Shown here: piece after piece, positions 12,573-37,362 of the stretch
Layout: each line of letters starts with the position of its first letter
Numbering within the stretch: the first letter of the stretch is position 1
NCBI GenBank assembly: GCA_016650185.1
Contig: JAENWE010000043.1
Span: 1 to 41,367, forward strand
Length of the DNA stretch: 41,367 bases
Direction: 5' to 3'
Origin: Vicinamibacteria bacterium
GTDB lineage: Bacteria > Acidobacteriota > Vicinamibacteria > Fen-336 > JAGNNV01
Made by a program: the position numbers and the translations under genes
The notes under the pieces: generated by a model
What the model saw: the letters and a program-made list of their open reading frames with translations, nothing else
What the model was told of the DNA's origin: nothing
Database searches by the model: none

Positions 12573-12873
12573 GAGGGTGGGCGCGTCAGACTCCGGGCAT
12601 CGGGGTCGTCTCCAAGGTGGACACACCGGGGAGACAGGCCCGGTAAATGGCGGAGATAAGGCGATGAGCTGCGTTGCATGGCCGGCGCACCCCCGATCCT
12701 AAGCGGTCTCCGGCCCGATTACAGTCGGCCCTTTCGATTCTCGCAAGCCTCGCGGAGCGCTCTCGCGCGGTCGATGCTCAAGAATGGGGCGTCCTGTTGG
12801 AGATAGATATTTTCAGCGCGTGAATCGGACGACCTGCCATTGTTCTTCGGAACCGCGGTGGCCGACCCCGGGG

Positions 12874-13974: not shown

Positions 13975-15110
13975 CAGAAGAGCTCCGCAGGGTCCGCCTG
14001 CAATACTTTGCGCAAGGCGAGAATGCCGGCGAACACACACATCGAGACCGTGAGTCCGGCCACCAGCGCCATCCGCGGCAGGGTGAGGTTGAGCAGAAGA
14101 CCGGTTGAGGCCTCGAGGACGCGGTAGAGGACCCACCCCGCGGCCAGGCTCGGAATGAGACCGACAACCGAAAGCAACACCGCTTCCACCAGCACGACCC
14201 CGATAATGTAGGCCTTGCCGAAGCCGATCGCCCGCAGTGTCGCGAACTCAGCCAGGTGGTCGGCCACCTCGGTGTAGAGGATCTGATAGCAGATCACCAC
14301 CCCCACCACGAAACCCATCGCCATGCCGATGAAAACGATGAGGCTGACCGGAGTGCCGGTATCCCAGTGCTCGAAATCCATGGCTCGGACCTCGTCTTTC
14401 GTGCGCACGGCGGCATCTCCCGGGAGGCCCGCGCGCAGCCCTTCAATGACCCGCTGCGGTTCGGCCCCGGGCTTCAGCTTCACCGCGATGAGTTCGATTC
14501 CGTTCATGGATTGGTGGGTGATCCGCGCGAACGTCTCGTCGCTCACGAGCAGATTCCCGTCGACCTCCAGGTCCGTGGCCATCGCAAAGGTTCCGACGAC
14601 CGAGAGCCCCTCCTTCTGGACCTGGGCCGGGCCAACCCCGATCCGACCCAGATAGCTCCTGGATCGGCTGTCGAGGAGAGCGGTGCCTGGTTGTCCAAGC
14701 AGTTTCGCCCCCGCACGGATGTCCGGGGGGAGAAACATCGGATCGTCCGGGCGAAAGCCCAGCACTCGGATGGGCCGAAAAGCGCCGTTCTCCAGGTTCT
14801 TCCAGTAAAGAAAGCGGAACCATAAAGGGTAGGCGGCAGCAACGCCCTCGACGGACAGCGTCTGTTGCACGCGAAGCAACGGAATGGTTTCCCTCTGGAT
14901 GGAGTTGTCCTTTTCTTTGTGCATGACCAGGATGTCGGCATCCAGGGACTCCAGGAGAGCAGTCACGCTGTCCAGCAGGGAATTCCTGAACCCCATCTGG
15001 ATTAGCATCAGGAAGACCGCGAAAGCGAGGGCGCCGAGCGAGGTTGCGAGGCGAGCGGGGTTGTGCCAGAGGAGGCGCCACGACAGCAGCACGGCCGATC
15101 CGGGATTCAC
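13974..15110 (-). CDS. devC: DevC-family (FtsX/MacB-type) ABC exporter permease, copy 2
   Basis: The N-terminus LLSWRLLWHNPARLATSLGALAFAVFLMLIQMGFRNSLLDS is typical of DevC. It is followed by a large periplasmic segment and a C-terminal FtsX-type helix bundle ending LQADPAELF. The start is GTG at 15110. Confidence 0.82.
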   Translation of the reverse strand: MNPGSAVLLSWRLLWHNPARLATSLGALAFAVFLMLIQMGFRNSLLDSVTALLESLDADILVMHKEKDNSIQRETIPLLRVQQTLSVEGVAAAYPLWFRFLYWKNLENGAFRPIRVLGFRPDDPMFLPPDIRAGAKLLGQPGTALLDSRSRSYLGRIGVGPAQVQKEGLSVVGTFAMATDLEVDGNLLVSDETFARITHQSMNGIELIAVKLKPGAEPQRVIEGLRAGLPGDAAVRTKDEVRAMDFEHWDTGTPVSLIVFIGMAMGFVVGVVICYQILYTEVADHLAEFATLRAIGFGKAYIIGVVLVEAVLLSVVGLIPSLAAGWVLYRVLEASTGLLLNLTLPRMALVAGLTVSMCVFAGILALRKVLQADPAELF

Positions 15111-15114
15111 GGGA

Positions 15115-16299
15115 CTAGAAGAGCTCCGCGGGATCGGCGGTACGGAGGCGACGCAGGCTCAGGAGGCCCGCGACCGTGCACATCGAGAGGCTCAGGAGGA
15201 GAACCAAGAGGGCCCGCCCGCCGCTCATGGCAATCGGGACCAGGGTCGCCCGATAGGCCGCGTCATACACAAGCAGCGCCAGGAGCAGAGCCGGCACGTA
15301 TCCCAGCGCCGCGAAAAGCCACGATTGCTGGAGAACGAGGACATACAGCCGACGGTTGGTGAAGCCCATGACCTTCATCGTCGCGTATTGGGGCAGGTGA
15401 GCGCGAATGTCCGTCGAGAGCACCTGGAACAGGATCATGGTCCCGACCAGAAATCCGACGACCGCGCCCATTTGAAAGATGGTCCCGATGGCGGTGTCCT
15501 CGACCCAGAATCGCGTCTGTCGATCGTTGAGTTGCCCCACGGTGAGGACCAGGGTATCCGGCGGCAGCACACGGCGCAGCCGGTCTGCAATCGCCTCCAC
15601 ATCGCTCCCCGCCTCGAGTCGCACGAGTCCCATATTGACTTCGTCCGCGGGTTGCCCATCGAACATCTGGGCGTAGGTCTCGTCGCTCGAAAGGAGTGAG
15701 CCGTCGGCCAGGAAACCCACGCCCAGCGTGTAACGCCCGACGAGATCCCTCATGCCTTCTCGAACCTCCACGGTCTTGAGGGTTTCGGTCGCTCCGCACT
15801 TTTCCTGGGTGAGCCGGTCGACCACGATGCTTCCGGGAGAGCCGAGCGCAGTCACCAGATTCGCGAGGCCCTCGATTCGGAGCGGCACCGCCGCAGCGAG
15901 GGGGAAGCCGATGGCGAAGAGGCTGCAGCCCCGCCCGGTCAACGGAGCCTTCCATCGCGCGATCCTCATGTAGATCGGGGTCACGCTCTTCACCTCGGGA
16001 ATCGATCTGGCCTGAAACAGGCGGCTGCGGGGCATCGAGCCCGAATCCGACAGATGAAGAAACTTCGCCGGTACCAGGACCAGATCCCCTTCAAAGCGGG
16101 AAGAAACCGCGACCGCGGTGGCGCGCAGCGCTCCCAGGAAGCCCAGTTGCAGGAACATGAAGAGGATCGCGAATGCGATTCCCGAGACCGCCACCCCGGT
16201 GCGCACCTTCTTGTGAGCGACCAAGCGGAGCGCCAGCCGCGTCGGCCGCGGGGAACCTGGGTCAGCCGTCGGCACGCGCGACGGCGAATCCGGGCTCAT
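15115..16299 (-). CDS. devC: DevC-family (FtsX/MacB-type) ABC exporter permease, copy 1
   Basis: The layout is the same as the neighbouring permease (SGIAFAILFMFLQLGFLGALRATA ... LRTADPAELF). ATG at 16297-16299 lies 1 nt after the devB-like stop. Confidence 0.82.
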   Translation of the reverse strand: MSPDSPSRVPTADPGSPRPTRLALRLVAHKKVRTGVAVSGIAFAILFMFLQLGFLGALRATAVAVSSRFEGDLVLVPAKFLHLSDSGSMPRSRLFQARSIPEVKSVTPIYMRIARWKAPLTGRGCSLFAIGFPLAAAVPLRIEGLANLVTALGSPGSIVVDRLTQEKCGATETLKTVEVREGMRDLVGRYTLGVGFLADGSLLSSDETYAQMFDGQPADEVNMGLVRLEAGSDVEAIADRLRRVLPPDTLVLTVGQLNDRQTRFWVEDTAIGTIFQMGAVVGFLVGTMILFQVLSTDIRAHLPQYATMKVMGFTNRRLYVLVLQQSWLFAALGYVPALLLALLVYDAAYRATLVPIAMSGGRALLVLLLSLSMCTVAGLLSLRRLRTADPAELF

Positions 16300-16300
16300 C

Positions 16301-17293
16301 CTACCGATCGCTTTGCAGGAGGATCTTGACTTGGCCTTCGAGATTTGTGAACCGGGCGGCGCTCACGCTGTCGTCAAGGGTCACGGTCACCTGAACGACG
16401 CGCGCGTTGTCCGGCGCGGTCGGGTCTTCGCCGAACACATTATTTTTCCCAACGAGGGCGCCGATCCTCGAGACGCGCCCCTCAACCGGGCCGGGCAGGG
16501 CCGCGCTCGTGAAGGTCGCGCGCTGGCCCACGCTGACAAGGTGCACATCGTTGGCGTGCACCTCCGCGAGCGCGGTCATGTCGGAAACCGCCCCGATCTG
16601 GGCGACGCCATCGGGCGCCCGCTCTCCGGGGCGGGCCAAAACCCGGAGGACGGTTCCGCTGACCGGCGCAACCACGGTAGTCCTTTCGAGGAGAATCCGG
16701 GCGCGTACCAGCTCGTTTCGGGCGTCCTGGGCGTTCAGCGCATTCGATCCCTCCAGGTATTTGAGATCGGCCCTGGCCGCCGACGCCTGCTCCTCGGCGC
16801 GCCGAGCCAGCAGACGTGTGGCGTCGAGTTGTTTCCCGGGCACCAGTCCCGCCTCCACGAGGCCTTTCTGCCGCTCAACGTCGGCGTTGTACTGAACCGC
16901 CTCCGCCTCGCTCAGCCGAACCCGGGCGCTCTGCGCGTCCATTTGAAGGGCGCCCAGCCGTCCGCGCTCGACCCGCAACTCCGCCGATCGGACGTCCTCC
17001 AGGCGCAGGGCGCGCGAAGCAAGATAGGCAATCGGATCGCCGGCCTTGACCGAATCCCCTTCGGCGACAAGAAGGCTCTGAACCACCCCGTCTTCGGCGA
17101 CTGCGGCGCGTACGACCTTGCCTGAAGGCTCCAGGCGGGCCATCGCGACAATCGAGTCTCGCTTCGGGGGAGCCTGAGGCGGATCGGACTTTGCGGCGCA
17201 GGCCGGGGAGAACGCTAATGCACTGACAATGGGAAACGCCGTTAGTCGTGCCCAGGCTGCGGGCTTGCCGAGCGGTTGAGCTTGCCGTTCCAT
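16301..17293 (-). CDS. devB: DevB-family (HlyD-type) membrane fusion protein
   Basis: The translation shows a lipoyl/beta-barrel plus coiled-coil pattern: ARLEPSGKVVRAAV...LLVAEGDSVKAGDPIAYL, VVAPVSGTVLRVLARPGE and the C-terminal NARVVQVTVTLDD, which is typical of DevB. I trimmed the start to ATG 17293 (MERQAQPL...). Confidence 0.82.
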   Translation of the reverse strand: MERQAQPLGKPAAWARLTAFPIVSALAFSPACAAKSDPPQAPPKRDSIVAMARLEPSGKVVRAAVAEDGVVQSLLVAEGDSVKAGDPIAYLASRALRLEDVRSAELRVERGRLGALQMDAQSARVRLSEAEAVQYNADVERQKGLVEAGLVPGKQLDATRLLARRAEEQASAARADLKYLEGSNALNAQDARNELVRARILLERTTVVAPVSGTVLRVLARPGERAPDGVAQIGAVSDMTALAEVHANDVHLVSVGQRATFTSAALPGPVEGRVSRIGALVGKNNVFGEDPTAPDNARVVQVTVTLDDSVSAARFTNLEGQVKILLQSDR

Positions 17294-17318
17294 TAAAGAG
17301 GCATCATAGACCCAATGG

Positions 17319-17348
17319 TTGCCACTCGGTTGGAGGCGTGGATACAAT
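17319..17348 (+). promoter_or_regulatory. Candidate sigma70-type promoter (TTGCCA-N18-TACAAT) for the TolC-like gene
   Basis: TTGCCA is at 17319-17324 and TACAAT at 17343-17348. They lie in the 83-bp divergent intergenic region, about 29 nt upstream of the ATG at 17377. This is a pattern match only. Confidence 0.3.
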
Positions 17349-17376
17349 CCTCGCTGTGGGCCAGCCAGAACCAGTC

Positions 17377-18942
17377 ATGCGCCTCCGGCTCGTCACCGGC
17401 CGGGGTCCGGGCCGTATTCGGTTCGGCGGCTCTGTCTCCTCCTCGATCCTCGTTCTCGCCGCTTCCGTATCTTTCGCCCAGCCCGCGCCGATTCCCGGAT
17501 TGCCGCTTTCGGAGGCGGTGCGCCTGACCCTGGAGCGGCAGCCCGGGATCAAACTCGCCGAGGAGCAGTTGAGCTTCGTCAACGGGAGCCTTCAAACCGC
17601 GCTCGGCGCCTTCGACGTGCAGTTCGGTTCGAGGCTGGGGGGCGCCTGGGATCGCGTGCCCCTGGCCTCGGACGCTAGCCGACCCGGGCTGGCGGAGAGC
17701 CGGATCACGAGCTTCAGTTACGTCTCCGAGGCTTCCAAGCTATTCAAGAACGGCCTCCTCATTACACCCTCGATCAGCCTTGCGAGTGGAGACTCGAATC
17801 TCGCCACGTTCACGGAGAGCCGGTCCGTGATCGCCTTCACGCTGCGCCAGCCCCTGCTCCGCGGGCGAGGCGAGGGCGGAGTGGCGGCGGCGTCCACCGC
17901 GGTGGGGCTGGACCGCGACGCGACTGCTTTCGACCTCCGTCACGTCGTGTCTCTGAGCGTCCTCGACACTGTGTACGCCTACTGGAGCTATCTCGCCGCG
18001 GTGGAGCGCATGCGGATCGTCCGGGAATCCGAGGATCGATTCGCCGAACTTCAGGAGCACTCCGAGAAGCTCCTGGAGGCGCGTGAGGTCGCGGCCGTGG
18101 ATTTAAAGCAGCTCAGCGCGAACGTGGCGAGGCGTCGGATCTCCCGGCTTCAAGCCGAGCAAACGGTGTTCGATGCCCGCGTTCGGCTGGGCCTTTCAGT
18201 CGGGCTGGACGCCGCCTCGCTCATTTCGATGGGATCGCCCCAGGACCCCTTCCCTTCGCCGCAGTCCGAAAGTTCGTCAACCGATGTCAGTGCGCTGATT
18301 CAGACGGCGCTGGCCGAGCGAGCCGATCTGCGGGCGGCTCGTCTGCGTCAGGACTCGGTGCGCGTGGCCGTGGGCGCTGCGAAGAACGCGACCCGGGCCA
18401 GCCTGGACCTGGTGGTGGGCACCAGCTACTCGGGAGAGAGCGAGCGGGGGGGGGTGAGAGGCTTCCTCGGCCCCTTGGGCGACAACCTACGGGGCCCGAG
18501 CGCTTCGGCGGCCCTGGTCTTTGAATGGCCGACCAGCAACCGGGCCGCGCTTGGGCGGCTGGCTGAAAACCAGTCCAGCCTTCGCCAATCCGGCATCGCC
18601 CTCGCCGATCTGGAGCGGGTGATCGGCGCTCGTGTGGCCCTTGCCGTCAACAACGTGGAGAAAAGCGCCGCTCGCCTTTCCACTGCCCGGGAATCGTGCG
18701 ACCTGTACCGCGAGGCGCTCGCGGCGGAGAGACAGCGCCTGCAGATCGGCATCAGCAGCGTACTCGACGTGATCAACACCGAAGACCGGCTGAACGAAAG
18801 CCTGCTGGAGGCGGTCTCGGCTGAACTGGACTACGCCCAGTCCGTCGCCGCCTTGCGTTTCGAAACCGGCACCCTCGTCCAGCAGACGGCGAATGGAGAC
18901 GAAATCGATTTTGCCTCATTGACGACCCCGCCGCGGCACTGA
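17377..18942 (+). CDS. TolC-like outer membrane efflux protein
   Basis: I trimmed the start to ATG 17377. The signal-like N-terminus is SSILVLAASVSFAQP. Two OEP-type repeats are visible (LSEAVRLTLERQPGIKLAEEQL... and ALIQTALAERADLRAARLRQD...). The gene is divergent from the devBCCA-type operon. Confidence 0.82.
   Translation: MRLRLVTGRGPGRIRFGGSVSSSILVLAASVSFAQPAPIPGLPLSEAVRLTLERQPGIKLAEEQLSFVNGSLQTALGAFDVQFGSRLGGAWDRVPLASDASRPGLAESRITSFSYVSEASKLFKNGLLITPSISLASGDSNLATFTESRSVIAFTLRQPLLRGRGEGGVAAASTAVGLDRDATAFDLRHVVSLSVLDTVYAYWSYLAAVERMRIVRESEDRFAELQEHSEKLLEAREVAAVDLKQLSANVARRRISRLQAEQTVFDARVRLGLSVGLDAASLISMGSPQDPFPSPQSESSSTDVSALIQTALAERADLRAARLRQDSVRVAVGAAKNATRASLDLVVGTSYSGESERGGVRGFLGPLGDNLRGPSASAALVFEWPTSNRAALGRLAENQSSLRQSGIALADLERVIGARVALAVNNVEKSAARLSTARESCDLYREALAAERQRLQIGISSVLDVINTEDRLNESLLEAVSAELDYAQSVAALRFETGTLVQQTANGDEIDFASLTTPPRH
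18446..18454 (+). repeat. Homopolymeric G9 tract inside the TolC-like CDS
   Basis: Nine consecutive G are read directly at 18446-18454 and encode ..ERGGV... Confidence 0.9.
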
Positions 18943-27074: not shown

Positions 27075-28076
27075 TCACCGTGACTGACCGATATGCCCGG
27101 CCTCCCGCAGCCAGCGAACCGTGTCGGCGAGAGTGGAGCGCGCGTCGCGGAAGGAGACACCCAGCTCCCTCTGGGCCTTGTCGCTCGACATATACCAGAA
27201 GAGCGTTCCGTAGGGAACCACCGCGGGGTTGAAAGGAAGGGGAATCCGCAGCAAGGGGCCGACCCGCGCGATGAACCGCAGGAGCGAATTGGGGATTTTC
27301 AGGGTGCGCGGCTTCCGCCCGAGAATCGCGAGCGTTGTCCGGGCCAGATCCTCGACGCTCACATTCTCCCCACCGAGAATGTAACGTTCCCCGCTGCGGC
27401 CCTTGTCCAGTGCGGCCACGGCGCCTTCGGCGACGTCATCCACATGGGCGACGCTCGTTCCGCCCGTGCAGACCACCGCCGGCGCGCTGTTCGCGAAATC
27501 CGCCAGCGTGCCCGCGGTGATCATGCCTGTGTCATTCGGGCCGTACACCTCGGTGGGATTGACCATGACCACGCGCAGACCGTCGGCGGAGGCCCGACGG
27601 CACAGTGCCTCCGCTTCGCGTTTTACCCGCGGATAGAGGTACCGGTCGAGCGGCAGTGTGAACTTGCTCTCTTCGTCGTGGACCACCGGTGTGGCCGATC
27701 CGTTGATCGCGGTGGCGCTGGATACGAACACGACTCGCACTCCTTCGCGGGCCAAAGCCGCCCGCAGGATGTGGCCGGTGCCGGCCACAACCACATCGGG
27801 GAGAACGGGGGAATTGATGTCGGTCCAGGAGGAAGGGCTTGCGAGATGGATGACTGAGTCGCACCCGTTGACCGCACGTTCGACGGCGGCGGAATCGCGC
27901 ACGTCCCCGAGCGCCGTTTCGTAAGGGAGACTCTGGATCCGTTCGGTCCGGCTCTCCGCGCGGAGGAGACAGCGGACATGGCCACCTTCCTCGAGAAGGC
28001 GGCGGACCACCCGCGACCCGATGAACCCGTTGCCGCCGGTGACGAGCGTGCGTCGGTGTTCCGACGCGTTCATCAT
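27075..28076 (-). CDS. Extended-SDR NAD(P)-dependent epimerase/dehydratase-family reductase
   Basis: The Rossmann motif is LVTGGNGFIGSRVV and the catalytic Y-x3-K is in YPRVKREAE. The ATG overlaps the TGA of the upstream alpha-oxoamine synthase (ATGA at 28073-28076). Confidence 0.85.
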   Translation of the reverse strand: MMNASEHRRTLVTGGNGFIGSRVVRRLLEEGGHVRCLLRAESRTERIQSLPYETALGDVRDSAAVERAVNGCDSVIHLASPSSWTDINSPVLPDVVVAGTGHILRAALAREGVRVVFVSSATAINGSATPVVHDEESKFTLPLDRYLYPRVKREAEALCRRASADGLRVVMVNPTEVYGPNDTGMITAGTLADFANSAPAVVCTGGTSVAHVDDVAEGAVAALDKGRSGERYILGGENVSVEDLARTTLAILGRKPRTLKIPNSLLRFIARVGPLLRIPLPFNPAVVPYGTLFWYMSSDKAQRELGVSFRDARSTLADTVRWLREAGHIGQSR

Positions 28077-29575
28077 CGGCAGAGCGCAGACCCGCCGAGG
28101 ACGCGATCCGCGGTCAGCCGGATGGCATGGTCCAGGTGGTCCTCGGTGTGGAGGCTCGACACGAAAAATCGGAGACGCGCGGTGCCTGGCTCCACCGCCG
28201 GGGAAACCAGCGGCTGAACGTTGACGCCCGCGGCAAACAGCTCGTTCGACAAGCGCATGGCGTCTAAGTCGCCGCCCACGATCACCGGGACCACGCCGGA
28301 ATGGGCGGACCGACCGACATCGAGCCCGCTTGCCCGCGCTTTCCGCGCAAGATACTCCGCGTTGCGGCGGAGCGTTCCCACGCGCGCGGGCTCGGCCTGC
28401 AGCATCTGGATCGCTCGCAGGGCCGCCGCGGCGTTTGCGGGAGAGATTCCGGCAGAGAAGATGAAACCCGGGCAGGTGTAGCGTAGGTAACGGATCAGCC
28501 GTCGCGCTCCCGCCACGTAGCCGCCACAGCTCGCGAGGGATTTGGAGAGCGTGCCCATGAGGATGTCGATTTCCGAAGCAGGGATCGAGAAGTGTTCGGC
28601 GATACCGCGCCCCGAGCGGCCCAGGACGCCAATGGAGTGGGCCTCATCGACCATCAGCCAAGCCTTGTGCTCGTGTTTGATGCGAATCAGTTCGTGGAGG
28701 TCGGGTATGTCGCCCTCCGTGCTGTAGACACCCTCGACCAGCACCAGTGCCGAGCGGTGGTTCCGGCGCTCTATCCCGAGGAGAGCGTCAAGAGCTGCGA
28801 AGTCGTTGTGAGGGAAGGACAGACATCGCGCTCCCGACAGGCGCGCGCCGGTGATGGCGCTGTTGTGCATCAAGGAGTCGTAGACGATGACGTCCCGGGG
28901 CGAGCAGAGATGGCTGATAACGGAGACGTTCGTCGCGTGGCCCCCGACGAAAACTAGCGCCTCTTCGGCTCCTACGAATCGCGCGAGAACGCTTTCGAGG
29001 CGGCGGTGGATTTCTCGCTCGCCTGAGGAGAGGCGACTCGCCGAAACCGAGGCTCCATACCGGTCGACGGCTTCGCGCGCCGCTTTTTTGACCTCGGGGT
29101 CATCGGCGAGCCCGAGGTAGTTGTACGAAGCGAAATTGATCAGGCTCCGGCCCCCGGAAACGATGGTTGAGCCAGACGCTCCATCGAACGAGCGGAAGAA
29201 GGGGTCTTCGAGTCCCGCGTCGTCGAGAGCCCGGAAGCGGGCCTCGAACTCGAGCAAACCGGGCAGCGCGTCGTACCCTCCGATGGCCTCGGCGGGTTTG
29301 GTCGATTCGACGGGGGCGGGAGCAGACAAGTGTTCGGCGAGCGCTCGGATCGAAGGCTGCTTCCACAGCAGGTCGGGATCGATACGACGGCCCGTCCAAT
29401 CTTCTGCCTCCGCGAGGACCGAAGCCACGGAAACCGAGTCAAGACCATATCCCGAGATGGGCGCGGTGAGATCGAGCCGATCCCGCCCGATCCCGGCTTC
29501 TCCTAAGAAGAGACTGATGAGCTTCTCCTCAACCTGGTCGCGGCTGAAGAGGCCCGGGGGCTTCGAAGGCATCAT
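28073..29575 (-). CDS. Carrier-protein domain fused to an alpha-oxoamine synthase (serine palmitoyltransferase/AONS family)
   Basis: The N-terminal ~90 aa form a PP-binding domain (ISGYGLDSVSVASVLAEAEDW). The AOS core carries INFASYNYLGL, GGHATNVSVIS, LMVDEAHSIGVLG and the PLP-Lys in MGTLSKSLASCGGY. I trimmed the start to ATG 29575 (MMPSKPPGLF...), and the track ORF extends to 29686. Confidence 0.85.
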   Translation of the reverse strand: MMPSKPPGLFSRDQVEEKLISLFLGEAGIGRDRLDLTAPISGYGLDSVSVASVLAEAEDWTGRRIDPDLLWKQPSIRALAEHLSAPAPVESTKPAEAIGGYDALPGLLEFEARFRALDDAGLEDPFFRSFDGASGSTIVSGGRSLINFASYNYLGLADDPEVKKAAREAVDRYGASVSASRLSSGEREIHRRLESVLARFVGAEEALVFVGGHATNVSVISHLCSPRDVIVYDSLMHNSAITGARLSGARCLSFPHNDFAALDALLGIERRNHRSALVLVEGVYSTEGDIPDLHELIRIKHEHKAWLMVDEAHSIGVLGRSGRGIAEHFSIPASEIDILMGTLSKSLASCGGYVAGARRLIRYLRYTCPGFIFSAGISPANAAAALRAIQMLQAEPARVGTLRRNAEYLARKARASGLDVGRSAHSGVVPVIVGGDLDAMRLSNELFAAGVNVQPLVSPAVEPGTARLRFFVSSLHTEDHLDHAIRLTADRVLGGSALCR

Positions 29576-29833
29576 GATCTTCGCGTTCACCCTCGCGATC
29601 TGCGTGTTCAGCGTCCGTCTTCCGGCCGTGAAGGGCTGGGGGAGGGAATACGAGCCTGACCGTAGAACCTGCGTCTTGCAGGACAACGTGAGCCAGGGGC
29701 GCGATCATGCCAGGTCAGCAACCTATTCAGTTTACACATGGGCTCCCGGTACGCCGGTTCTCCTCGGCCGCGCCGGCCGCTCTCATGGAAGCAGCGCGAA
29801 AAATGACGGGGCCCCACCACAAAACCCGCGCCA

Positions 29834-31609
29834 TCAGGCGCTGAAGATCTGGTTCTCCACGAGTTCGGCGTAGACCGAACCCTGGCGCATCAGCGATCCA
29901 TGCGTTCCCGACTCGACCACCCGGCCGCCATCGAGCACGATCACGCGATCGGCGGAACGGATGGTGGACAGGCGATGGGCGATTACCAGCGTGGTCCGTC
30001 CCTGCATGAGGCGTTCGACCGCTTCATGCACTAGGGATTCGCTCTCGCTGTCGAGGGCGCTCGTCGCCTCGTCGAGGATGAGAATTCGCGGGTCCTTGAG
30101 TACGGTGCGGGCGATGGCGATGCGTTGTCGCTGGCCGCCGGAAAGCTGAACTCCGCGCTCGCCCACCCGGGTCTCGAATCCTTGCGGAAGGCCCGTGATG
30201 AAGTCGTGCGCGTTTGCCGCCCGCGCCGCGTTCACGACCTCCGCCGTCGAGACGTGATCGAGGCCGAAGCGGATGTTCTCGGCGATGGTCAGGGCAAAAA
30301 GTGTCGGCTCCTGCGACACGAAACCGATGTGTCGCCGCAGCCATCGACCGTCGAGGGTGCGTGAATCGGCGCCATCGATCAGGATGCGGCCTGCGAGCGG
30401 GTCATGAAAACGCAGCAGGAGGCCCGCGAGTGTCGACTTCCCCGCCCCGGATGCTCCGACGAGAGCGACCACCTCGCCGGGTCGAACCGCTAGGCTGAGA
30501 TCGTGCAGCACCGGCACTTCGGGCCTCGATGGGTAAGCGAACCCCACACCTTCGAAGACGACCTCGCCGGTCATGGCCTCCGCGCCCTTCCCCTCGCCCA
30601 CGGGAATGCGTGGCTCTCGGCCGAGGACCTCCAATATCCGTTTAAGGGCCCCCGACGCCCGTCGGACCTCTGTGGAACATTCGGCCAGGTCGCGAACCGC
30701 GCCCAACGCCAGCATGCCGGTGAAGGCGAATGCGGCGAGGCCTCCGGTGCTGACGGCTCCCGCCGAAAGCTGAGGCATCCCCACCAGGATGACGACGAGC
30801 ATTTCGGGGCCCACCACGGACACGCCGCGGACCACGCCATAGACAAAGTTGGTGCGTCGCCCGATGGCAAGGTTGCCTAGGGCGGCGGTCCGATAGCGTT
30901 GCGACATGAAGGCCTCCTGGTCGCTCGCGCGGACCGTACGAATGCCGGAGATGGCCTCCGCCGCGATGCTCGCCATGTCCCCCGTGTTGGTCTGGTAGTC
31001 GTGGGCCAGCTCGGCCACGCGCCGTCCCAGGCGATTGACGAAGAGCACGAAGGGCGTCAGAACGCCCACCAGCACCAGCGTCAGGAGCGGAGACATCCAC
31101 AGCAACACGATTGCCCCCCCGCCGACGAGCACCAGGCTTCGCATGGCAGCCACTACTTGGCCCACGAGGACCTCCTCGAGGGCCTGGGCGTCACCCATGA
31201 GACGGCTCGTCAGGTCGCCTGCCCGCTCTTCGTCGAAGAAGCCGACCTCCTGCCGGAGGATCGAGTCGAAAGTAGAGCTGCGCAGCCGCGCGATCAAGCT
31301 TTGGCTGGCCGAGCTGAAGAGCACTCTTTCCCCGAATCGGCTAAGTCCGCCCAGGCAGAGAACGCCGAAAATGAAGAGCGCGAAGTCCACAGAGAGGCGG
31401 CCTTCATCCACAACGCGGCCCACGGCCTGTGGGAAGTACAGCTGCGTGGCTCCGGCCAGGAAACCGGACACGATGCCCGCCGCGATCATCCAGAGATCCG
31501 GGACCACGAGCGCCCATAGTCGTTCCCGCGCCGAGACTCGTGGGGAGCCATGGCCCGTGGGTTCGTTCTTCACAAGGGGCCCCGGCCGGCGTTTCTTCGT
31601 GAGAACCAA
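29834..31609 (-). CDS. ABC exporter, fused permease-ATPase half transporter (MsbA-like lipid flippase type)
   Basis: The protein has a six-helix ABC_membrane region followed by GASGAGKST, LSGGQRQRIAIAR and ILILDEATSALD. The start is ambiguous: TTG at 31609, or GTG at 31573 that overlaps the upstream TGA (GTGA). Confidence 0.85.
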   Translation of the reverse strand: MVLTKKRRPGPLVKNEPTGHGSPRVSARERLWALVVPDLWMIAAGIVSGFLAGATQLYFPQAVGRVVDEGRLSVDFALFIFGVLCLGGLSRFGERVLFSSASQSLIARLRSSTFDSILRQEVGFFDEERAGDLTSRLMGDAQALEEVLVGQVVAAMRSLVLVGGGAIVLLWMSPLLTLVLVGVLTPFVLFVNRLGRRVAELAHDYQTNTGDMASIAAEAISGIRTVRASDQEAFMSQRYRTAALGNLAIGRRTNFVYGVVRGVSVVGPEMLVVILVGMPQLSAGAVSTGGLAAFAFTGMLALGAVRDLAECSTEVRRASGALKRILEVLGREPRIPVGEGKGAEAMTGEVVFEGVGFAYPSRPEVPVLHDLSLAVRPGEVVALVGASGAGKSTLAGLLLRFHDPLAGRILIDGADSRTLDGRWLRRHIGFVSQEPTLFALTIAENIRFGLDHVSTAEVVNAARAANAHDFITGLPQGFETRVGERGVQLSGGQRQRIAIARTVLKDPRILILDEATSALDSESESLVHEAVERLMQGRTTLVIAHRLSTIRSADRVIVLDGGRVVESGTHGSLMRQGSVYAELVENQIFSA

Positions 31610-33138
31610 CGACGATTGTTGTGGTAAGCCGACGTGAACGCCGTGAACCCCTGGTCGTAAACCCGGCGGTGCGCCGGGCGGGGTTCAAAGGTCCGTTCCA
31701 CAGGAGCAAGCGCTTCGAGCGATTCGAAGGTGTCCACCACGCCGAGAGCGTGGAGGGTGAGCAATGCGGCGCCTCGGGCAGCCGCGAACTCGGGCCTCGG
31801 GATCCTCACGAGGGGGCGGTCGAGGACATCTGCGAGAATCTGGCTCAGGACGTCGCTTCTTGCCCCACCGCCAGTCAGCCGGAGACCGCCAGCTTGCGGC
31901 GTGCCGACCAGCGGCTCGACCTTCGAAAGAGCCCACCGCGTGTTGTAGGCGATGCCTTCGAAAACTGCCCGGGCGAGGTGGGACCGCCCGTGATTCAGAT
32001 CGAGATTCAAAAACCCTCCGCGCGCATGCGCGTCGTCTATGGGCGTGCGCTCTCCGGCAAACCAGGGCAGAAAAGTGAGGTGGGCGGAACCCGGCTCACA
32101 GTCGTTGACGAGGCAGGAGAGGGCTTCGTGGCTGAGGGGCACTCCTTGATCCGACAGTACGCGAAGCCGTAGCCACTCGATGAGGTTACCCGCGTTTTGC
32201 TGGGCGGCCACCACGAGATAGCGCGATGCGTCGGCGCTGCACATAGGGCCTACGTACGAAAGCGGATCGGACACCCGTCGAGGGGCGTGCGCCGCGACCC
32301 AGGAGCTCGTTCCGATCGATACGTGCATGGCGGCGCCGCGCACCGCCCCGCAGCCAATGGACATGGCCGCCACATCGCCCGGGCCGGTCATCACCACGGT
32401 CCCCGGATTCAATCCGAGATCTCTCGCGGCCTCCGCGGTGAGTGGGCCCGAAGGATCCGTGGGGGCCAGAAGGTCGGGAAGCAGCGACTCCCGGAGGCCT
32501 ATCATCCCGAGAATCGTTGAGGACCAAGAGCGCCGACCCGGCCGCGTGTCCATCAGCCAAGTGAGGTTGGCGCAATCGTGCGAGGTGACGTACCGGCCCG
32601 TGCTTCTAAAGAGCAAGTAATCCTTCACGTCGAGAAGCTTGGCCGTCTCGCGCCAGATTTCCGGCCTGCTCTGGCGGAGCCAGACGATCTTGGAAACCGG
32701 ATCGGTTCCGGTCAGGGACGGAGCCCCGCCTGTAAGCCAGAGCCAGCGGGCGATGCGGGTGGCTCCGTAGCCAAAAACCCGAATCAGGCCGCCCGTGACT
32801 TCCCGCGCCTGTCGCCCGGCCCGGGCATCCAGCCAGATCATCGAACGCATCAGGGGGCGGCCCTCGGCGTCCACCGGGAGTGTTCCCTGCATCTGACCGG
32901 TGAAGGTAAGGGCGCGCACTTCGTGGGCCTCGACCGACGCGTCCGATAGGACACGAGCGGTGGTCGTCCGGACCGCGTTCCACCAGTCGAGAGGATCCTG
33001 TTCGGCGAAACCTGCCTCGGGGAAATGAGTCGGGTACGAAGCGGACGCGGTCGCGATCAGACTCCCCTGCTCATCCAGGAGCACAGCCTTGTCGCTCGAG
33101 GTGCCCACATCGTGGGCCAAGACCAGTCGCCTCTTCAC
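31570..33138 (-). CDS. FGGY-family carbohydrate/polyol kinase
   Basis: The N-terminus is LVLAHDVGTSSDKAVLLDEQG and the C-terminal motif is LRLTGGGARSDVLSQILADVLDRPL. My preferred start is GTG 33138, which overlaps the cdsA-like TGA (GTGA). The track ORF starts at 33156. Confidence 0.82.
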   Translation of the reverse strand: MKRRLVLAHDVGTSSDKAVLLDEQGSLIATASASYPTHFPEAGFAEQDPLDWWNAVRTTTARVLSDASVEAHEVRALTFTGQMQGTLPVDAEGRPLMRSMIWLDARAGRQAREVTGGLIRVFGYGATRIARWLWLTGGAPSLTGTDPVSKIVWLRQSRPEIWRETAKLLDVKDYLLFRSTGRYVTSHDCANLTWLMDTRPGRRSWSSTILGMIGLRESLLPDLLAPTDPSGPLTAEAARDLGLNPGTVVMTGPGDVAAMSIGCGAVRGAAMHVSIGTSSWVAAHAPRRVSDPLSYVGPMCSADASRYLVVAAQQNAGNLIEWLRLRVLSDQGVPLSHEALSCLVNDCEPGSAHLTFLPWFAGERTPIDDAHARGGFLNLDLNHGRSHLARAVFEGIAYNTRWALSKVEPLVGTPQAGGLRLTGGGARSDVLSQILADVLDRPLVRIPRPEFAAARGAALLTLHALGVVDTFESLEALAPVERTFEPRPAHRRVYDQGFTAFTSAYHNNRRWFSRRNAGRGPL

Positions 33139-33866
33139 TCCGCCCGACATGCCCACAGATAGGCCTGGAAGAGTGGGGCAACAAAGATCAGCGAGTCGTA
33201 GACGTCGAGGACACCGCCGTGGGTGGGGATGACCGCGCCGAAGTCCTTGATCCTCGCGGCGCGTTTGATCGACGAGGCGAACAGGTCGCCGGCCGTGCCC
33301 GCGCCGGCGAGGAAACCGCCGCCGATCAGGACCTGTTCCCGGCTCAGCGAAGGCACCGCGAAATGGAAGAGAGGCGCCATCGCAATGGTTGTCACGAGCC
33401 CACCCACAAGGCCGGCGACGGTCTTATTGGGACTAAGCGCCGGAAAAGGCCGCGCTTTCCCGAAAGTAGCACCGATCAGATAGGCGGACGAGTCGTTGAT
33501 CTCGACCGCAGCGTAGCAGAAGAACACATCCCCGAATCCGGTGGGGGCAGCGCCCAGGGCAAAGAGCGCCCCCAGGAAAAGGCCCGGGTACAAAAGAGTT
33601 AAGCCAGCGAGCCCCATCCTCCCCAAGGCCCGGGCCGCTTCGATCGCGCAGGCGAGGCCAATCGCGGAAACCGCGGCCAGAAACCACCAGGGTCCCAAGT
33701 AGGCGGGGACGAGGATCGCAGCCAGGGTCAGGATCTCGACGACGTAAGTCGTCCAAATGCGCCGCCCCATGAGACGGCCTTTGGCCTGAGCGAGACCGAT
33801 CCACAGAGCAGCCAGCCCGAATATTGTGGCGACCAATTCCACGGCGGTCTGGGCAGGCTCACGCAT
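33135..33866 (-). CDS. CdsA-family cytidylyltransferase (phosphatidate cytidylyltransferase paralog)
   Basis: The protein is multi-pass and carries SPNKTVAGLVGG and the CdsA signature region GDLFASSIKRAARIKDFGAVIPTHGGVLDVYDS. The usual Arg after GG-x-x-D is Val here. I trimmed the start to ATG 33866. Confidence 0.8.
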   Translation of the reverse strand: MREPAQTAVELVATIFGLAALWIGLAQAKGRLMGRRIWTTYVVEILTLAAILVPAYLGPWWFLAAVSAIGLACAIEAARALGRMGLAGLTLLYPGLFLGALFALGAAPTGFGDVFFCYAAVEINDSSAYLIGATFGKARPFPALSPNKTVAGLVGGLVTTIAMAPLFHFAVPSLSREQVLIGGGFLAGAGTAGDLFASSIKRAARIKDFGAVIPTHGGVLDVYDSLIFVAPLFQAYLWACRAE

Positions 33867-34070: not shown

Positions 34071-35009
34071 GTGGAACGTCTGGACGTCGTCTATGCCTGG
34101 GTGGATGGAGCCTGGCCCGGCTACCGGGACGAACTCTCACGCTACGCGGGCCGTCCCGTCGACTTGAACCCCAACCGCCACCGCGACAATCTCGACCTGT
34201 TGAAATACAGTCTTCGCTCCCTGGAGGTCTTCGCCCCCTGGATTGAGAGGATTCACCTGGTAACCGCTCGTCCGCAGTCGCCTTCCTGGCTGAACCCGCA
34301 CGCACCGGGCCTCAAAGTGATTCACCATGACGAGTTGTTCGCGCTCCGACACCTTCCGACCTTCAACTCCTTCGCCATCGAGTCCTATCTGTATCTCCTG
34401 CCCGACCTCTCACCCCGCTTCTTGTACTTCAACGACGATATGGTCCTCGGCCGCACCCTTCACCCTGGAGACGTGATGACCAAAGACGGTCGGGCGCGCA
34501 TCCACCTCGAATGGAATCCTTCGATCGCCCGGCGAAAGGATGAGCATCCCTGGCGCGCCGCCATCGGCTTCGCGAACGAGCTGCTCGATAAAGCCTTCGG
34601 CGCGGCCAATGCGCGGCGTCTGGTGCGCCATGCTCCGGTGTTGATGGAGATCCAACGCTGGCAGGCACTCGCTGATAAGTGGCCCGAGCCCCTGGAAGCC
34701 ACGCGGTCCGGGCGCTTCCGTTCGGGAGACACGTTCGCTCCCGACTTCCTCTATCCGTACTTTTGTCTCGCTACCGGGCACGCAACCGCGGTATCGATCG
34801 TGGACAGTTACCGCCAGGCCGCCTATGTTGGTCTCGATAACCGGGGGTGGCTGGTGAGCCTCCAGCTCGCCGTCGTCGATCGCCTCCGCCCCCTTTTCCT
34901 CACCCTGAACGACAATTTCGACGAAACGGCTGCGGAGGCCGTCGTGGCCTCGGTGCGCCGATTCCTCGAGTCGTGGTTTCCGCGCCCCTCGCGCTTTGAG
35001 AAGCCATGA
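34071..35009 (+). CDS. Stealth-family hexose-1-phosphoryltransferase
   Basis: The Stealth conserved regions are present: CR1 VVYAWVDG, CR2 NRHRDNLDLLKYSLRSLEVFAPWIERIHLVT...PSWL, and CR3 LPTFNSFAIESYLYLLPDLSPRFLYFNDDMVLG. The start is GTG at 34071. Confidence 0.85.
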   Translation: MERLDVVYAWVDGAWPGYRDELSRYAGRPVDLNPNRHRDNLDLLKYSLRSLEVFAPWIERIHLVTARPQSPSWLNPHAPGLKVIHHDELFALRHLPTFNSFAIESYLYLLPDLSPRFLYFNDDMVLGRTLHPGDVMTKDGRARIHLEWNPSIARRKDEHPWRAAIGFANELLDKAFGAANARRLVRHAPVLMEIQRWQALADKWPEPLEATRSGRFRSGDTFAPDFLYPYFCLATGHATAVSIVDSYRQAAYVGLDNRGWLVSLQLAVVDRLRPLFLTLNDNFDETAAEAVVASVRRFLESWFPRPSRFEKP

Positions 35010-36721
35010 GCGGATCCATGACGTTCGTTGACGTGCTGCGCCGTCGCGCCGAAAGCCGGGAGGGTGAGAAAGGCTACACCTTCCTGGTCGATGGCGAGGG
35101 CCTCGAGGAACGACTCAACTACGCCGAACTGGCGGTTCGCGCCCGGCTGATTGGAGGAAGGCTGGCCGCCCGGATCCCGCGGGGCGTCCGGGCTGTGCTT
35201 GTTTTTGACCCCGGGCTCGCATACATCGCGACGCTTTTCGGCTGCTTGCAGGCCGGCATCGTGGCCGTTCCGGCATACCCGCCGAACCCCCTTCGGCCGG
35301 AAGCCGGCCTCGACCAGATCGAACGCGTGACCGCAAGTGCAAAGGCCAGGTTCATCCTGGGCTCCGGCGAACTCCTGGGCCGTCTGCACAATCTGCTCAG
35401 AGGCGCCCCCTGGGTGCAGGGCCTGGGGTGGATCGACGTCAGCGCCGCCGACGCCGATCAGGCGAACTGTCTCCCTGAGGTTTCGGAGGACGACATCGCC
35501 ATCATCCAGTACACCTCCGGTTCCACGTCCGAACCCAAGGGCGTGATGGTGACCCATCGCAACCTGATTCAGAACGCCGAGTTCATTCGTGCAGGCTTCG
35601 CACTCACCGAGAATGCCAGTGGCGTCTCCTGGCTGCCTCCCCATCACGACATGGGTCTGATGGGAGGGATCATCCAGCCTCTGTTCATGGGCATGAACAT
35701 GGTTCTCCTATCGCCCCAGCTTTTCGCGCGGCGTCCGGCCACCTTCCTCGAGGCCATTTCGCGATTTCAGTTGACGGGTGGGGGCGGCCCGAACTTCGCA
35801 TACGACATGCTGACCAGGAGGGTGGGCGAAGCGGCCAAGGCCCAGCTGGACCTCTCGTCCTGGAATCTGGCGTTTTGTGGAGCGGAGCCGGTGCGCGCGG
35901 CGACCCTCGACGCCTTCGCCGATGCCTTCGCGGGATGTGGCTTTCGCCGCGAGGCTTTTCTCCCGTGCTACGGCCTCGCCGAGGCGACTCTTCTGGTCAC
36001 CGCCTCTGAATTCACCAGGGAGCCGCGACGCCTGACTCTCGACGACGGCGCGCTCGAGAAGGGTTTTGTGGTGCCTGCCGACCCTTGCCTGCCGGGAACA
36101 CGCGCGTTCGTCAGTTGCGGCCGTGCGCCAGCCGGCATGCGAGTGACGATTGTCGATCCCGGGACCGGTCAGGTTCAACCGAAAGGCCGAACCGGCGAGA
36201 TCTGGGTCAAGGGCCCCAACGTCGCCGCGGGATACTGGGACGCCCCGCTCGCCACCGCGGCCAGCTTCAATGCACAACTCGACGACGGGCAGTCGGGATT
36301 CCTTCGTACCGGCGACCTCGGTTTCATCGATCAGGGCGAGTTGTTCATCACCGGAAGGTTCAAAGACCTGATCATCATTCGGGGCCGCAATCTGCACCCC
36401 CAGGACATCGAGTCGACCGTCGAAAACGCTCACTCCGCGGTGCGGCCGGGCCGATCAGCCGCGTTCTCCGTGGAGGTCGAGGGCGACGAGCGGCTGGTCG
36501 TGGTCTTCGAAGTCGGCCGCCGGGCCCTCCTCGATCCCGCACCCGTCCGGGAAGCGGTCCGACGGGCGGTCGCCGGAGCGCACAGCATCGTTCCCCACGA
36601 GATCGTCCTTCTAGAGCCCGCAAGGCTCCCCCGCACATCGAGCGGCAAACCGCGAAGGGTCCTCACTCGGCAGCGGTTCCTGGCGGGGCGGCTCGGTCTC
36701 GACGTGGAGACCCCCGAATGA
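35006..36721 (+). CDS. Fatty acyl-AMP ligase (FAAL, FadD32-like adenylating enzyme)
   Basis: The N-terminus is TFVDVLRRRAESREGEKGYTFL...LNYAELAVRA. The adenylation motifs are IIQYTSGSTSEPKGVMVTHRNL, WLPPHHDMGLMGG, TGDLGFI and SSGKPRR. The ATG overlaps the Stealth TGA (ATGA at 35006-35009). Confidence 0.88.
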   Translation: MSGSMTFVDVLRRRAESREGEKGYTFLVDGEGLEERLNYAELAVRARLIGGRLAARIPRGVRAVLVFDPGLAYIATLFGCLQAGIVAVPAYPPNPLRPEAGLDQIERVTASAKARFILGSGELLGRLHNLLRGAPWVQGLGWIDVSAADADQANCLPEVSEDDIAIIQYTSGSTSEPKGVMVTHRNLIQNAEFIRAGFALTENASGVSWLPPHHDMGLMGGIIQPLFMGMNMVLLSPQLFARRPATFLEAISRFQLTGGGGPNFAYDMLTRRVGEAAKAQLDLSSWNLAFCGAEPVRAATLDAFADAFAGCGFRREAFLPCYGLAEATLLVTASEFTREPRRLTLDDGALEKGFVVPADPCLPGTRAFVSCGRAPAGMRVTIVDPGTGQVQPKGRTGEIWVKGPNVAAGYWDAPLATAASFNAQLDDGQSGFLRTGDLGFIDQGELFITGRFKDLIIIRGRNLHPQDIESTVENAHSAVRPGRSAAFSVEVEGDERLVVVFEVGRRALLDPAPVREAVRRAVAGAHSIVPHEIVLLEPARLPRTSSGKPRRVLTRQRFLAGRLGLDVETPE

Positions 36722-37362
36722 TCGACAGTCTCTACCGGTCGAAACAGGATGCGTTCTGGGACCGGTTGGGAGGCGTTCTTGCCCGGCGCGGCGTGTCGCC
36801 GGATGCCGTGACCAAAGGCGCGTTTCTTCTGAGCACGCTCAACTCTTTCGCCTTCCTCGTTCACCGCAACTTCCTCGCCTACGGTCTGCTGCTCGCGATG
36901 ACGGAACTTCTGGACAACTTGGACGGGGCCGTCGCCCGCGTGAGCGGGCGGAAGACGAGGTATGGCGCGTTTCTCGATGCGGCCACGGATCGCTACAAGG
37001 AGTCGCTGAGTCTGTTCGTCGTGGCCTGGGTGACGGGCTACTGGGTCGCGTGTTTCGCGGCGGTGACGGGCTCCCTGCTCACGAGCTACAACCGCGCGCG
37101 CGCCGCCGTCGAAGGCGCACAGGCCGCCGCCACGGGTCTTGATCTCTTTGAGCGCTTCGAACGTGTGGCGACACTCGTGCTGGGTCTCGTTCTTTCTCCG
37201 CTCTTGCCGCCCTCGCTGTTCCTCGGTCGCGACGCCCTCTGGGGCGCGTTGGTGTTGATCGGGATCTTGTCTCACCTAACGTCGGTTCAGCGCGTGTGGC
37301 GTGCCCGCCGGGTCCTGCGTGAACTTGACCGCGGGTCGTCCTCTCCCTTCCCCCGGGCCTGA
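36718..37362 (+). CDS. CDP-alcohol phosphatidyltransferase family protein
   Basis: The motif D-x2-D-G-x2-A-R-x8-G-x3-D-x3-D is read as DNLDGAVARVSGRKTRYGAFLDAATDRYKE. The protein is a multi-pass membrane protein of about 214 aa. The ATG overlaps the FAAL TGA (ATGA at 36718-36721). The track ORF from 36085 is an in-frame artefact over the FAAL 3' end. Confidence 0.85.
   Translation: MIDSLYRSKQDAFWDRLGGVLARRGVSPDAVTKGAFLLSTLNSFAFLVHRNFLAYGLLLAMTELLDNLDGAVARVSGRKTRYGAFLDAATDRYKESLSLFVVAWVTGYWVACFAAVTGSLLTSYNRARAAVEGAQAAATGLDLFERFERVATLVLGLVLSPLLPPSLFLGRDALWGALVLIGILSHLTSVQRVWRARRVLRELDRGSSSPFPRA

Follow-up and report, generated by a model that had tools for sequence, protein, structure and literature searches.

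The contig JAENWE010000043.1 (assembly GCA_016650185.1) belongs to a Vicinamibacteria bacterium of the Acidobacteriota, and positions 1 to 41,367 of its forward strand are the window analysed here. The assembly is a 3.85-Mb metagenome-assembled genome (MAG) of 535 contigs and is 79% complete. Three genes of the window, encoding a CdsA paralog, an FGGY-family kinase, and a cytidine diphosphate (CDP)-alcohol phosphotransferase, constitute one three-enzyme module, and the trio is inherited together in several phyla. As judged from sequence comparison, the probable role of the trio is to make, by a route not described before, the head group that a phosphate links to a sphingolipid-like lipid of the outer membrane. 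The features of the module are:

33135..33866, minus strand: CdsA paralog of 243 amino acids (aa), CTP_transf_1 family (PF01148) with an Arg-less signature, running from ATG 33866 to TGA 33135
33192..33221, minus strand: signature HGGVLDVYDS, with the codon of Val222 at 33203-33201
31570..33138, minus strand: XylB-like FGGY-family kinase of 522 aa with FGGY_N and FGGY_C domains, running from GTG 33138 to TGA 31570
36718..37362, plus strand: CDP-alcohol phosphotransferase of 214 aa (PF01066), of the archaetidylinositol-phosphate (AIP) or phosphatidylinositol-phosphate (PIP) synthase type

The co-inheritance of the three genes is strict. Scans of genomes and metagenome contigs yielded 160 loci with a CdsA-like gene, and the neighbours of the 16 loci with a D[VLI][YF]D signature have been examined. 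An FGGY ortholog of the window kinase (41-73% identity) is present in 16 of 16 such loci that are long enough, and in 0 of ~130 canonical DRxD cdsA loci. An AIP/PIP-synthase-like transferase is found in 10 of the 16, FtsX/DevC proteins in 11, HlyD in 10, and NTP_transf_3 proteins in 9, all counts being limited by contig ends. An even sample of 301 genomes of Myxococcota, the phylum of the L038 and G405 genomes, has also been searched. The paralog, the FGGY ortholog, and the transferase occur in the same nine genomes, while any of them is found in 0 of the 292 others. In all nine carriers the trio lies on one contig within ~10 kb, and the kinase orthologs show at least 49% identity and at least 561 bits, compared with at most 40% and 394 bits for the next tier. 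The first-pass annotation of this DNA had named the transferase at 36718 as the natural partner of the other two enzymes, and the co-distribution (9/9 versus 0/292 genomes) bears this out. Within the window's own phylum, a search of 400 genomes for the paralog revealed no further carrier. In the window lineage, represented by the window and its two nearest orthologous loci (L034, from a Vicinamibacteria MAG, and L114, from a metagenome contig), the cdsA-like and FGGY genes are coupled by an ATGA or GTGA overlap.

Database names for the two genes are phosphatidate cytidylyltransferase and xylulokinase. Taken at face value, these names would describe chance neighbours, namely a redundant phosphatidate cytidylyltransferase, a catabolic xylulokinase, and a general exporter. 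Such a reading is strongly disfavoured. Both proteins fall under the equivalog cut-offs, the loss of the Arg is conserved, and all sufficiently long loci, from at least three phyla, have the pair side by side, while canonical cdsA loci lack it. Also, the annotated loci hold lipid and export genes beside the kinase instead of a xylose isomerase or sugar-uptake gene, for which no specific search was made.

A second PF01148 gene has been identified on contig C170 of the same assembly, directly downstream of uppS (undecaprenyl-diphosphate synthase), and has the canonical signature HGGALDRMDG. This uppS-cdsA pair identifies the window gene as a paralog, in agreement with the first-pass annotation, which had proposed a dedicated CdsA. 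A housekeeping cdsA is expected to be single-copy and to lie beside uppS; the window gene is the second in the genome and lies elsewhere. The paralog scores 149.1 bits against PF01148 (cut-off 24) and matches the structure of Thermotoga maritima CdsA (TmCdsA; 4Q2G) with an E value of 1e-16. Against the CdsA equivalog NF008635 it scores 77.9 bits (cut-off 385), and the match covers residues 157-274 only. Mutagenesis of TmCdsA has shown that D144, K167, D219, K226, D246, and D249 are essential (PMC4083444). In the alignment, all of these residues are retained and invariant in the paralog family. The changes are found at the Arg between D246 and D249, which is replaced with Val, Ile, or Leu, and at E222, which is replaced with Ala.

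The signature of the window protein reads PTHGGVLDVYDS, where Val222 stands between the catalytic Asp residues at the position of the family Arg. This departure from the family, already pointed out in the first-pass annotation, is not confined to the window. The block PT[HQ]GGV[LF]DVYD[SA] is nearly invariant in 17 homologs, with the Val kept in at least 90% of the paralog alignment. Since the substitution is kept across homologs of 42-68% identity, it is not due to chance. By comparison, the DRxD form of the signature was matched 92 times among the 160 CdsA-like loci. In a quick maximum-likelihood tree of 30 rows, the lipid-island CdsA-like proteins with D[VILM][YFLA]D form one set apart from the DRxD enzymes, with a support of 95 in the Shimodaira-Hasegawa-like approximate likelihood ratio test (SH-aLRT). 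The D[VIL][YF]D clade spans Acidobacteriota, Myxococcota, Gemmatimonadota, and Alphaproteobacteria and is always located in lipid-synthesis or export islands. Its DIYD branch, linked to alpha-oxoamine synthases (AOS), extends to Alphaproteobacteria (Rhizomicrobium MAGs). The window-type paralogs (240-257 aa) lack ~55 residues, corresponding to about two middle-domain helices, that are kept in the 300-aa Myxococcota type (L038:9950-10903). The paralog is probably active with an altered substrate. As a speculation, the C2 ammonium or amide group of a sphingoid phosphate might be tolerated once the positively charged Arg beside the two catalytic Asp residues is replaced.

Two more Arg-less CdsA-like clades, DC[IM]D and DV[VL]D/DQ[VL]D, are placed elsewhere in the tree and have no FGGY gene nearby. 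Their loci are L140, L141, L149, L153, L161, L163, and L167, and L169, L174, L180-L186, and L193.

The CdsA superfamily also includes CTP-dependent lipid kinases such as yeast Dgk1, dolichol kinase, and phytol kinase. With its altered signature, the paralog could be a kinase of this type, leaving the FGGY enzyme to act on the head group. We consider this very improbable. The CdsA catalytic set is complete in the paralog and includes the HGG..D..D block, which to our knowledge is not found in the CTP-dependent lipid kinases. Moreover, its strict partner is a CDP-alcohol transferase, and such an enzyme requires a CDP-activated substrate.

The transferase contains the motif DNLDGAVAR...GAFLDAATDR (D-x2-D-G-x2-A-R ... 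G-x3-D-x3-D), which is conserved in all module loci. Its scores of 125.4 bits against NF040950 (cut-off 180) and 78.8 bits against NF045883 (cut-off 170) are under both thresholds. The equivalents of S132, K135 (as Arg), R155, and R195 of the PIP synthase MtPIPS are retained, with ERFER aligning to R155 and VQRV to R195. All module loci keep these residues, as does L130, a locus without an FGGY gene. In MtPIPS, R155 and R195 bind the phosphate of inositol phosphate, and the six-helix size is that of CDP-alcohol phosphotransferases with a soluble acceptor (PMC4634129). The window enzyme, at 214 aa, has this size. Based on the conserved phosphate-binding Arg residues and the six-helix size, the acceptor is very likely a phosphorylated alcohol. 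A gene for inositol-1-phosphate synthase (MIPS) has been found in the window's genome, at a contig end (C396:17096-17434), and in 5 of 5 other module genomes checked.

The kinase matches both FGGY domains (143 bits against PF00370 and 104.9 bits against PF02782). Its GPGDVAA segment aligns with GGGDNAA of XylB, which contains the catalytic Asp, and a GGGARS segment is present. A sequence scan detects no transmembrane or hydrophobic segment, as expected for a soluble protein. The matches of the kinase in the ESM Atlas are 'xylulokinase family' clusters only. On the other hand, the scores against the XylB equivalogs TIGR01312 (313.5; cut-off 380.25) and NF011601 (196.7; cut-off 912) are under threshold, and the protein is predicted not to be a xylulokinase.

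The nearest kin of the module kinase in module-less Myxococcota genomes (37-41% identity) are likewise under the XylB cut-off. In 15 of the 22 loci fetched from the Myxococcota sample, these kinases are encoded directly upstream of a sphingosine-1-phosphate (S1P) lyase homolog (L213:7737-10867 and 14 further loci among L212-L229). The two genes lie on the same strand, and the gap between them is usually 30-60 nt (range 30-215 nt, and 1.7 kb in L212). The lyase homolog scores 683 bits to the Symbiobacterium S1P lyase (StSPL) and 420 bits to human SGPL1. The substrate of S1P lyase is a long-chain-base 1-phosphate. As the lyase requires this substrate, the FGGY branch paired with it probably includes sphingoid-base kinases. 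A literature search for FGGY proteins together with CdsA, sphingolipid, S1P lyase, or sphingosine found nothing relevant. A conserved 277-aa protein with no Pfam or PDB relative is encoded after the lyase in 9 of the 15 kinase-lyase loci.

The first-pass annotation had left the position of the kinase among the FGGY families to a phylogeny. In the kinase tree, the module kinases group with this sister set (SH-aLRT 87), leaving E. coli XylB and GlpK outside. The lyase-linked kinases form a clade of their own (SH-aLRT 96), and the module kinase lies outside it. An Asp-Val pair at the catalytic Asp is common to module and lyase-linked kinases, while XylB and an aldolase-linked relative have Asp-Asn. 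The His loop GQMHG of XylB is changed to GQMQG or CQMFG in the module kinases and to QW[AS]G in the lyase-linked clade.

The lipid that the module could act on is suggested by the genes around it. In the window, the trio lies among a fatty acyl-AMP ligase (FAAL), an acyl carrier protein (ACP)-fused AOS, a short-chain dehydrogenase/reductase (SDR), an Eis-like GNAT protein, a Stealth transferase, and several glycosyltransferases. The window also encodes two FkbM methyltransferases, LicD together with a fusion of a cytidylyltransferase and a pyridoxal-phosphate (PLP) enzyme, and a DevBCA/TolC-like exporter. The context genes are located as follows:

27075..29686, minus strand: ACP-fused AOS (Spt-like) and SDR reductase
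34071..36721, plus strand: Stealth hexose-1-phosphate transferase and FAAL, divergent from the cdsA-like operon
11376..18942: Eis-like GNAT, two DevC/FtsX permeases, HlyD adaptor, and TolC-like outer-membrane efflux protein

The ACP-fused AOS and the SDR are the likely source of a long-chain amino-alcohol. Stealth and FAAL genes also flank the cdsA-like/FGGY pair in L034 and L114. In the Myxococcota loci, the trio is accompanied by homologs of GNAT, DevC/FtsX, HlyD, and TolC-like proteins. The first-pass annotation had considered a non-diacylglycerol lipid phosphate as the substrate of the CdsA paralog. With AOS, FAAL, SDR, and GNAT genes in the window and in related loci, this is plausible.

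We propose, at a confidence just short of even, that the trio equips a lipid other than phosphatidate with a phosphodiester head group and that the kinase phosphorylates this lipid. The lipid would most likely be a sphingoid amino-alcohol or ceramide produced by the neighbouring FAAL, ACP-fused AOS, SDR, and GNAT proteins. We infer the substrates and the step order as follows. The soluble FGGY kinase would phosphorylate the primary hydroxyl of a long-chain base or ceramide, and the membrane CdsA paralog would use CTP to convert the resulting lipid phosphate to a CDP-lipid. The six-helix transferase would then couple the CDP-lipid to a soluble phospho-alcohol, for which inositol-1-phosphate from the genome's own synthase is an obvious candidate. 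The product would finally be decorated, flipped by the MsbA-like protein encoded next to the kinase, and exported by the DevBCA/TolC-like system. A lipid kinase would explain why the genome has a second CdsA whose active site is altered, why the kinase is locked to the CdsA-like gene in the manner of Caulobacter cpgB and cpgC (PMC11324152, PMC12275187), and why its kin are paired with S1P lyase. The operonic association of the sister kinases with S1P lyase, together with MIPS in all module genomes checked, raises somewhat our rating of the kinase as the source of the lipid phosphate.

A more specific version of this proposal is possible but doubtful. The FGGY enzyme would be a long-chain-base or ceramide kinase, the Arg-less CdsA would form a CDP-sphingoid, and the transferase would make inositol-phosphoryl (glyco)sphingolipids without phosphatidylinositol in Acidobacteriota and Myxococcota. 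We know of no demonstration of a CDP-sphingoid liponucleotide, and nothing relevant on CDP-ceramide was found in the literature.

Several observations weigh against a lipid substrate for the kinase. The module kinase keeps a XylB-like polar loop (GQMQG in the window), and the substrates of all characterised FGGY kinases, which cover nine functions, are soluble sugars, polyols, or sugar acids (PMC3245297). The kinase and transferase genes form one transcription unit in L135 and L138, an arrangement that fits the supply of an acceptor equally well. The lyase-linked clade is nested behind lyase-less branches of the sister group, and one of these is associated with an aminotransferase and an aldolase; a lipid substrate therefore need not be ancestral to the module kinase. 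The branch in question is a basal relative of the lyase-linked kinases (L230:3871-8321). Its operon also encodes a class-III aminotransferase, a class II aldolase, and a TetR regulator, a gene content that hints at a pathway for a soluble amino-sugar or amino-polyol. MIPS occurs in 120 of 201 genomes of the window's phylum (118 of 199 without the unpublished G024 and G049) and in all 17 genomes sampled from the window's class and order, the window's genome included. As MIPS is this common in the phylum, its presence in module genomes is permissive, and the acceptor could come from central metabolism. Finally, the Myxococcota module loci have no AOS beside them and carry phosphonate genes instead.

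Much of this evidence would also fit a kinase acting on the head group. The FGGY enzyme would phosphorylate a soluble polyol or sugar, the paralog would provide CDP-diacylglycerol, or CDP-ceramide if another kinase makes the phosphate, and the transferase would release a lipid-phosphate-polyol-phosphate. This scheme, which we regard as rather unlikely, is analogous to GlpK with CdsA and PgsA, or to MIPS with CdsA and PIP synthase. It agrees with a soluble kinase with XylB-like loops and with a six-helix transferase that has both phosphate-binding Arg residues, and the strict co-inheritance of the trio is expected equally. However, it offers no origin for a lipid phosphate other than phosphatidate, or else calls for a redundant CdsA for phosphatidate despite the conserved active-site change. 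No other kinase was found in the annotated parts of the module loci, where no search was aimed at diacylglycerol kinase (DAGK)-type kinases. Furthermore, L130 contains an AIP-synthase-like transferase with the same Arg residues and a CdsA-like gene without an FGGY kinase, and the sister kinases pair with S1P lyase. The first-pass annotation had cast the kinase as the supplier of a phospho-polyol head-group precursor. Its role thus stays one of two live readings, although it is weakened by the S1P-lyase-linked sister clade and by the presence of MIPS.

A third arrangement is a Kennedy-type branch, in which the product of the kinase is cytidylylated by an NTP_transf_3 protein and the CDP-alcohol is passed to a CDP-alcohol transferase or LicD, the paralog acting in a separate step. 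NTP_transf_3 genes are found in 9 of the 16 module loci, and in the window such a gene is fused to the PLP enzyme beside LicD. The CDP-glycerate used for this kind of lipid in Caulobacter is a product of CpgD (PMC12275187). The Myxococcota loci additionally encode a second CDP-alcohol transferase in which the catalytic motif is present and the phosphate-binding Arg residues are absent. We nevertheless judge the arrangement improbable, since the kinase is strictly tied to the paralog and the Arg-bearing transferase and not to nucleotidyltransferases. The window has no second transferase of the Arg-less type, and the Myxococcota nucleotidyltransferases are explained by adjacent phosphonate genes (PMC6697681).

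These phosphonate genes have been observed at L038:6163-11683 and L037:4703-11270, where the paralog is co-transcribed with a fusion of phosphoenolpyruvate mutase (Ppm) and cytidylyltransferase, phosphonopyruvate decarboxylase (Ppd), and another NTP_transf_3 protein. The phosphonate-type locus of L037 adds a class-V aminotransferase. Neither Ppm nor Ppd was found in the window's genome, which is 79% complete. From its gene content, the Myxococcota version looks like a phosphonate-decorated form of the same lipid. The Myxococcota carriers each hold AOS homologs of 37-44% identity elsewhere. In the module-bearing genome G405 (contig C27; L209:9110-12255), an AOS homolog with 39% identity to the window enzyme adjoins mlaA and mlaC; no ACP, reductase, or acyltransferase was found beside it.

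Related Arg-less CdsA-like genes are also found in loci without an FGGY kinase. L142:59-11591 encodes a polyketide synthase terminal module (enoylreductase-ketoreductase-ACP), an AOS, an amine oxidase, a 491-aa protein, HlyD, and two FtsX proteins. A CdsA-like gene of the DIYD form is also present, along with a convergent gene for a CDP-alcohol transferase that belongs to another subtype. From its gene content, L142 is a predicted SgaAB-like sphingolipid cluster with its own CDP-activation pair. The products of the SgaAB sphingolipid pathway include a phosphoglycerol sphingolipid (PMC12134224). In L177, an Arg-less CdsA-like gene neighbours AOS and Stealth genes. What the Arg-less lipid-island clade has in common is predicted to be a specialised lipid that is exported and often has an amino-alcohol as its backbone.

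The closest parallel in general layout is found in Caulobacter, where cpgB (ceramide kinase, CC_1160), cpgC (CdsA-like, CC_1161), and cpgA (CDP-alcohol transferase, CC_1159) are adjacent and CpgC has been proposed to make a nucleoside diphosphate-activated ceramide (PMC11324152, PMC12275187). The likeness lies in a sphingolipid locus with a kinase, a CdsA-like protein, a CDP-alcohol phosphotransferase, and an NTP_transf_3 cytidylyltransferase, cpgD (CC_1152); CpgC is likened to the paralog here by description, not by sequence. The kinases differ, since CpgB has a DAG-kinase fold with a GGDG motif and the module kinase has an FGGY fold. The CpgB study included yeast Dgk1 as a lipid kinase for comparison. 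In Caulobacter, phosphoglycerate is the head group and transport depends on LptF/G/C paralogs, whereas the window encodes MsbA-like and DevBCA proteins.

The module also resembles the inositol-lipid route formed by MIPS, CdsA or CarS, and PIP or AIP synthase. The transferase is closest to AIP/PIP synthases, has the six-helix size and both Arg residues, and MIPS is encoded in the module genomes. In contrast to the known inositol-lipid routes, the transferase is under every equivalog cut-off, the module adds its own CdsA paralog and an FGGY kinase, and no PIP phosphatase was recognised in the cluster. TmCdsA (4Q2E/4Q2G) belongs to the same family as the paralog, which keeps its C-terminal catalytic domain and essential residues. 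The paralog differs from TmCdsA and housekeeping CdsA in having Val for Arg and Ala for E222, in lacking ~55 middle-domain residues, and in the absence of uppS context. The FGGY/S1P-lyase pairs share with the module kinase the same XylB-like non-XylB branch and the Asp-Val pair. However, these pairs look catabolic (phosphorylation followed by cleavage), while the use of the module kinase would be anabolic (CDP activation and transfer). Finally, the Myxococcota module operons, which encode a Ppm-cytidylyltransferase fusion, Ppd, a further cytidylyltransferase, and 'phospholipid' proteins, are similar to the phosphonolipid clusters predicted under the name 'Burkholderiales_CDP-OH', but no FGGY kinase is named in the seven-gene core of those clusters (PMC8942020).

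In the window itself, the cdsA-like and FGGY genes are followed on the same strand by an exporter gene, and the three are joined by short overlaps:

33135..33138, minus strand: GTGA overlap of the cdsA-like stop and the FGGY start (sequence)
31570..31573, minus strand: GTGA overlap of the FGGY stop and a possible ABC start (sequence)
29834..31573, minus strand: MsbA-like half-size ABC exporter, 579 aa from the GTG (TIGR02203/TIGR02204 scores)
29809..29841, minus strand: two terminator-like hairpins with T-runs at the ABC stop (consensus scan only)

The cdsA-like stop codon is TGA 33137-33135, and the overlapping GTG 33138-33136 opens the FGGY frame as V-KRRLVLAHDVGTSSDK. In L034 and L114, an ATG is found at the homologous codon and forms an ATGA overlap with the cdsA-like stop. 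Thus, the 4-nt overlap and the FGGY start at 33138 are conserved. Two other in-frame starts lie 5' of 33138 (GTG 33156 and ATG 33150), and neither has ortholog support. The start of the cdsA-like gene at ATG 33866 agrees with the orthologs, and a longer open reading frame (ORF) to 33977 has no ortholog support. At the second junction, the FGGY stop codon is TGA 31572-31570 and GTG 31573-31571 opens the ABC frame, with TTG 31609 as an alternative start. The ABC N-terminus counted from GTG 31573 is about as long as that of the L034 ortholog. In L034, two ORFs (158 and 456 aa; L034:5883-7742) that have no Pfam match and no counterpart in the window part the FGGY and MsbA-like genes, and so this junction is not conserved. 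Both overlaps had been reported in the first-pass annotation and are present in the sequence as described.

The hairpins at the ABC stop likely mark the operon end; the consensus scan found 9 such hairpins in the region, compared with 3.2 expected. A consensus scan of 29500-34200 detected no sigma-70-like promoter. The two GTGA overlaps and the hairpins make a single transcription unit of the cdsA-like, FGGY, and MsbA-like genes plausible. A 204-bp divergent region (33867-34070) separates the cdsA-like operon from the operon encoding Stealth, FAAL, the transferase, and a GT2 glycosyltransferase.

The MsbA-like protein scores 447.4 bits against TIGR02203 (cut-off 602) and 503 bits against TIGR02204, also under the cut-off. 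A paralog that is the better MsbA candidate of this genome is encoded on contig C101 (570 bits on TIGR02203). The MsbA-like gene accompanies the paralog-kinase pair in only 3 of the 16 loci (the window, L034, and L036) and is outside the conserved core of the module. In Myxococcota, the kinase heads a DevA-DevC-DevC-DevB operon instead. The first-pass annotation had proposed a flippase co-expressed with the two enzymes. In the window the exporter gene is plausibly co-transcribed with them, but the association does not extend to most loci, where a DevA/DevC-type exporter is found. Overall, the sequence observations of the first-pass annotation are confirmed, and its interpretation is partly supported.

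The head-group chemistry of bacterial sphingolipids is largely unsolved, including the CpgC step in Caulobacter. The trio provides a sharply defined and phylogenetically portable three-gene unit of kinase, CdsA paralog, and transferase. The module appears to be a variant of the CDP-dependent head-group logic of the phosphatidylglycerol-phosphate (PGP), PIP, and, genetically, Caulobacter CPG pathways, with an unexpected kinase family and a diagnostic CdsA signature. The change from Arg to a hydrophobic residue is a simple marker that separates the Arg-less paralogs from housekeeping CdsA, a split that current annotation does not make. If the kinase takes a sphingoid base, this would establish a lipid kinase of the FGGY fold and a CDP-activated sphingoid intermediate, and it would explain the widespread FGGY/S1P-lyase pairs.

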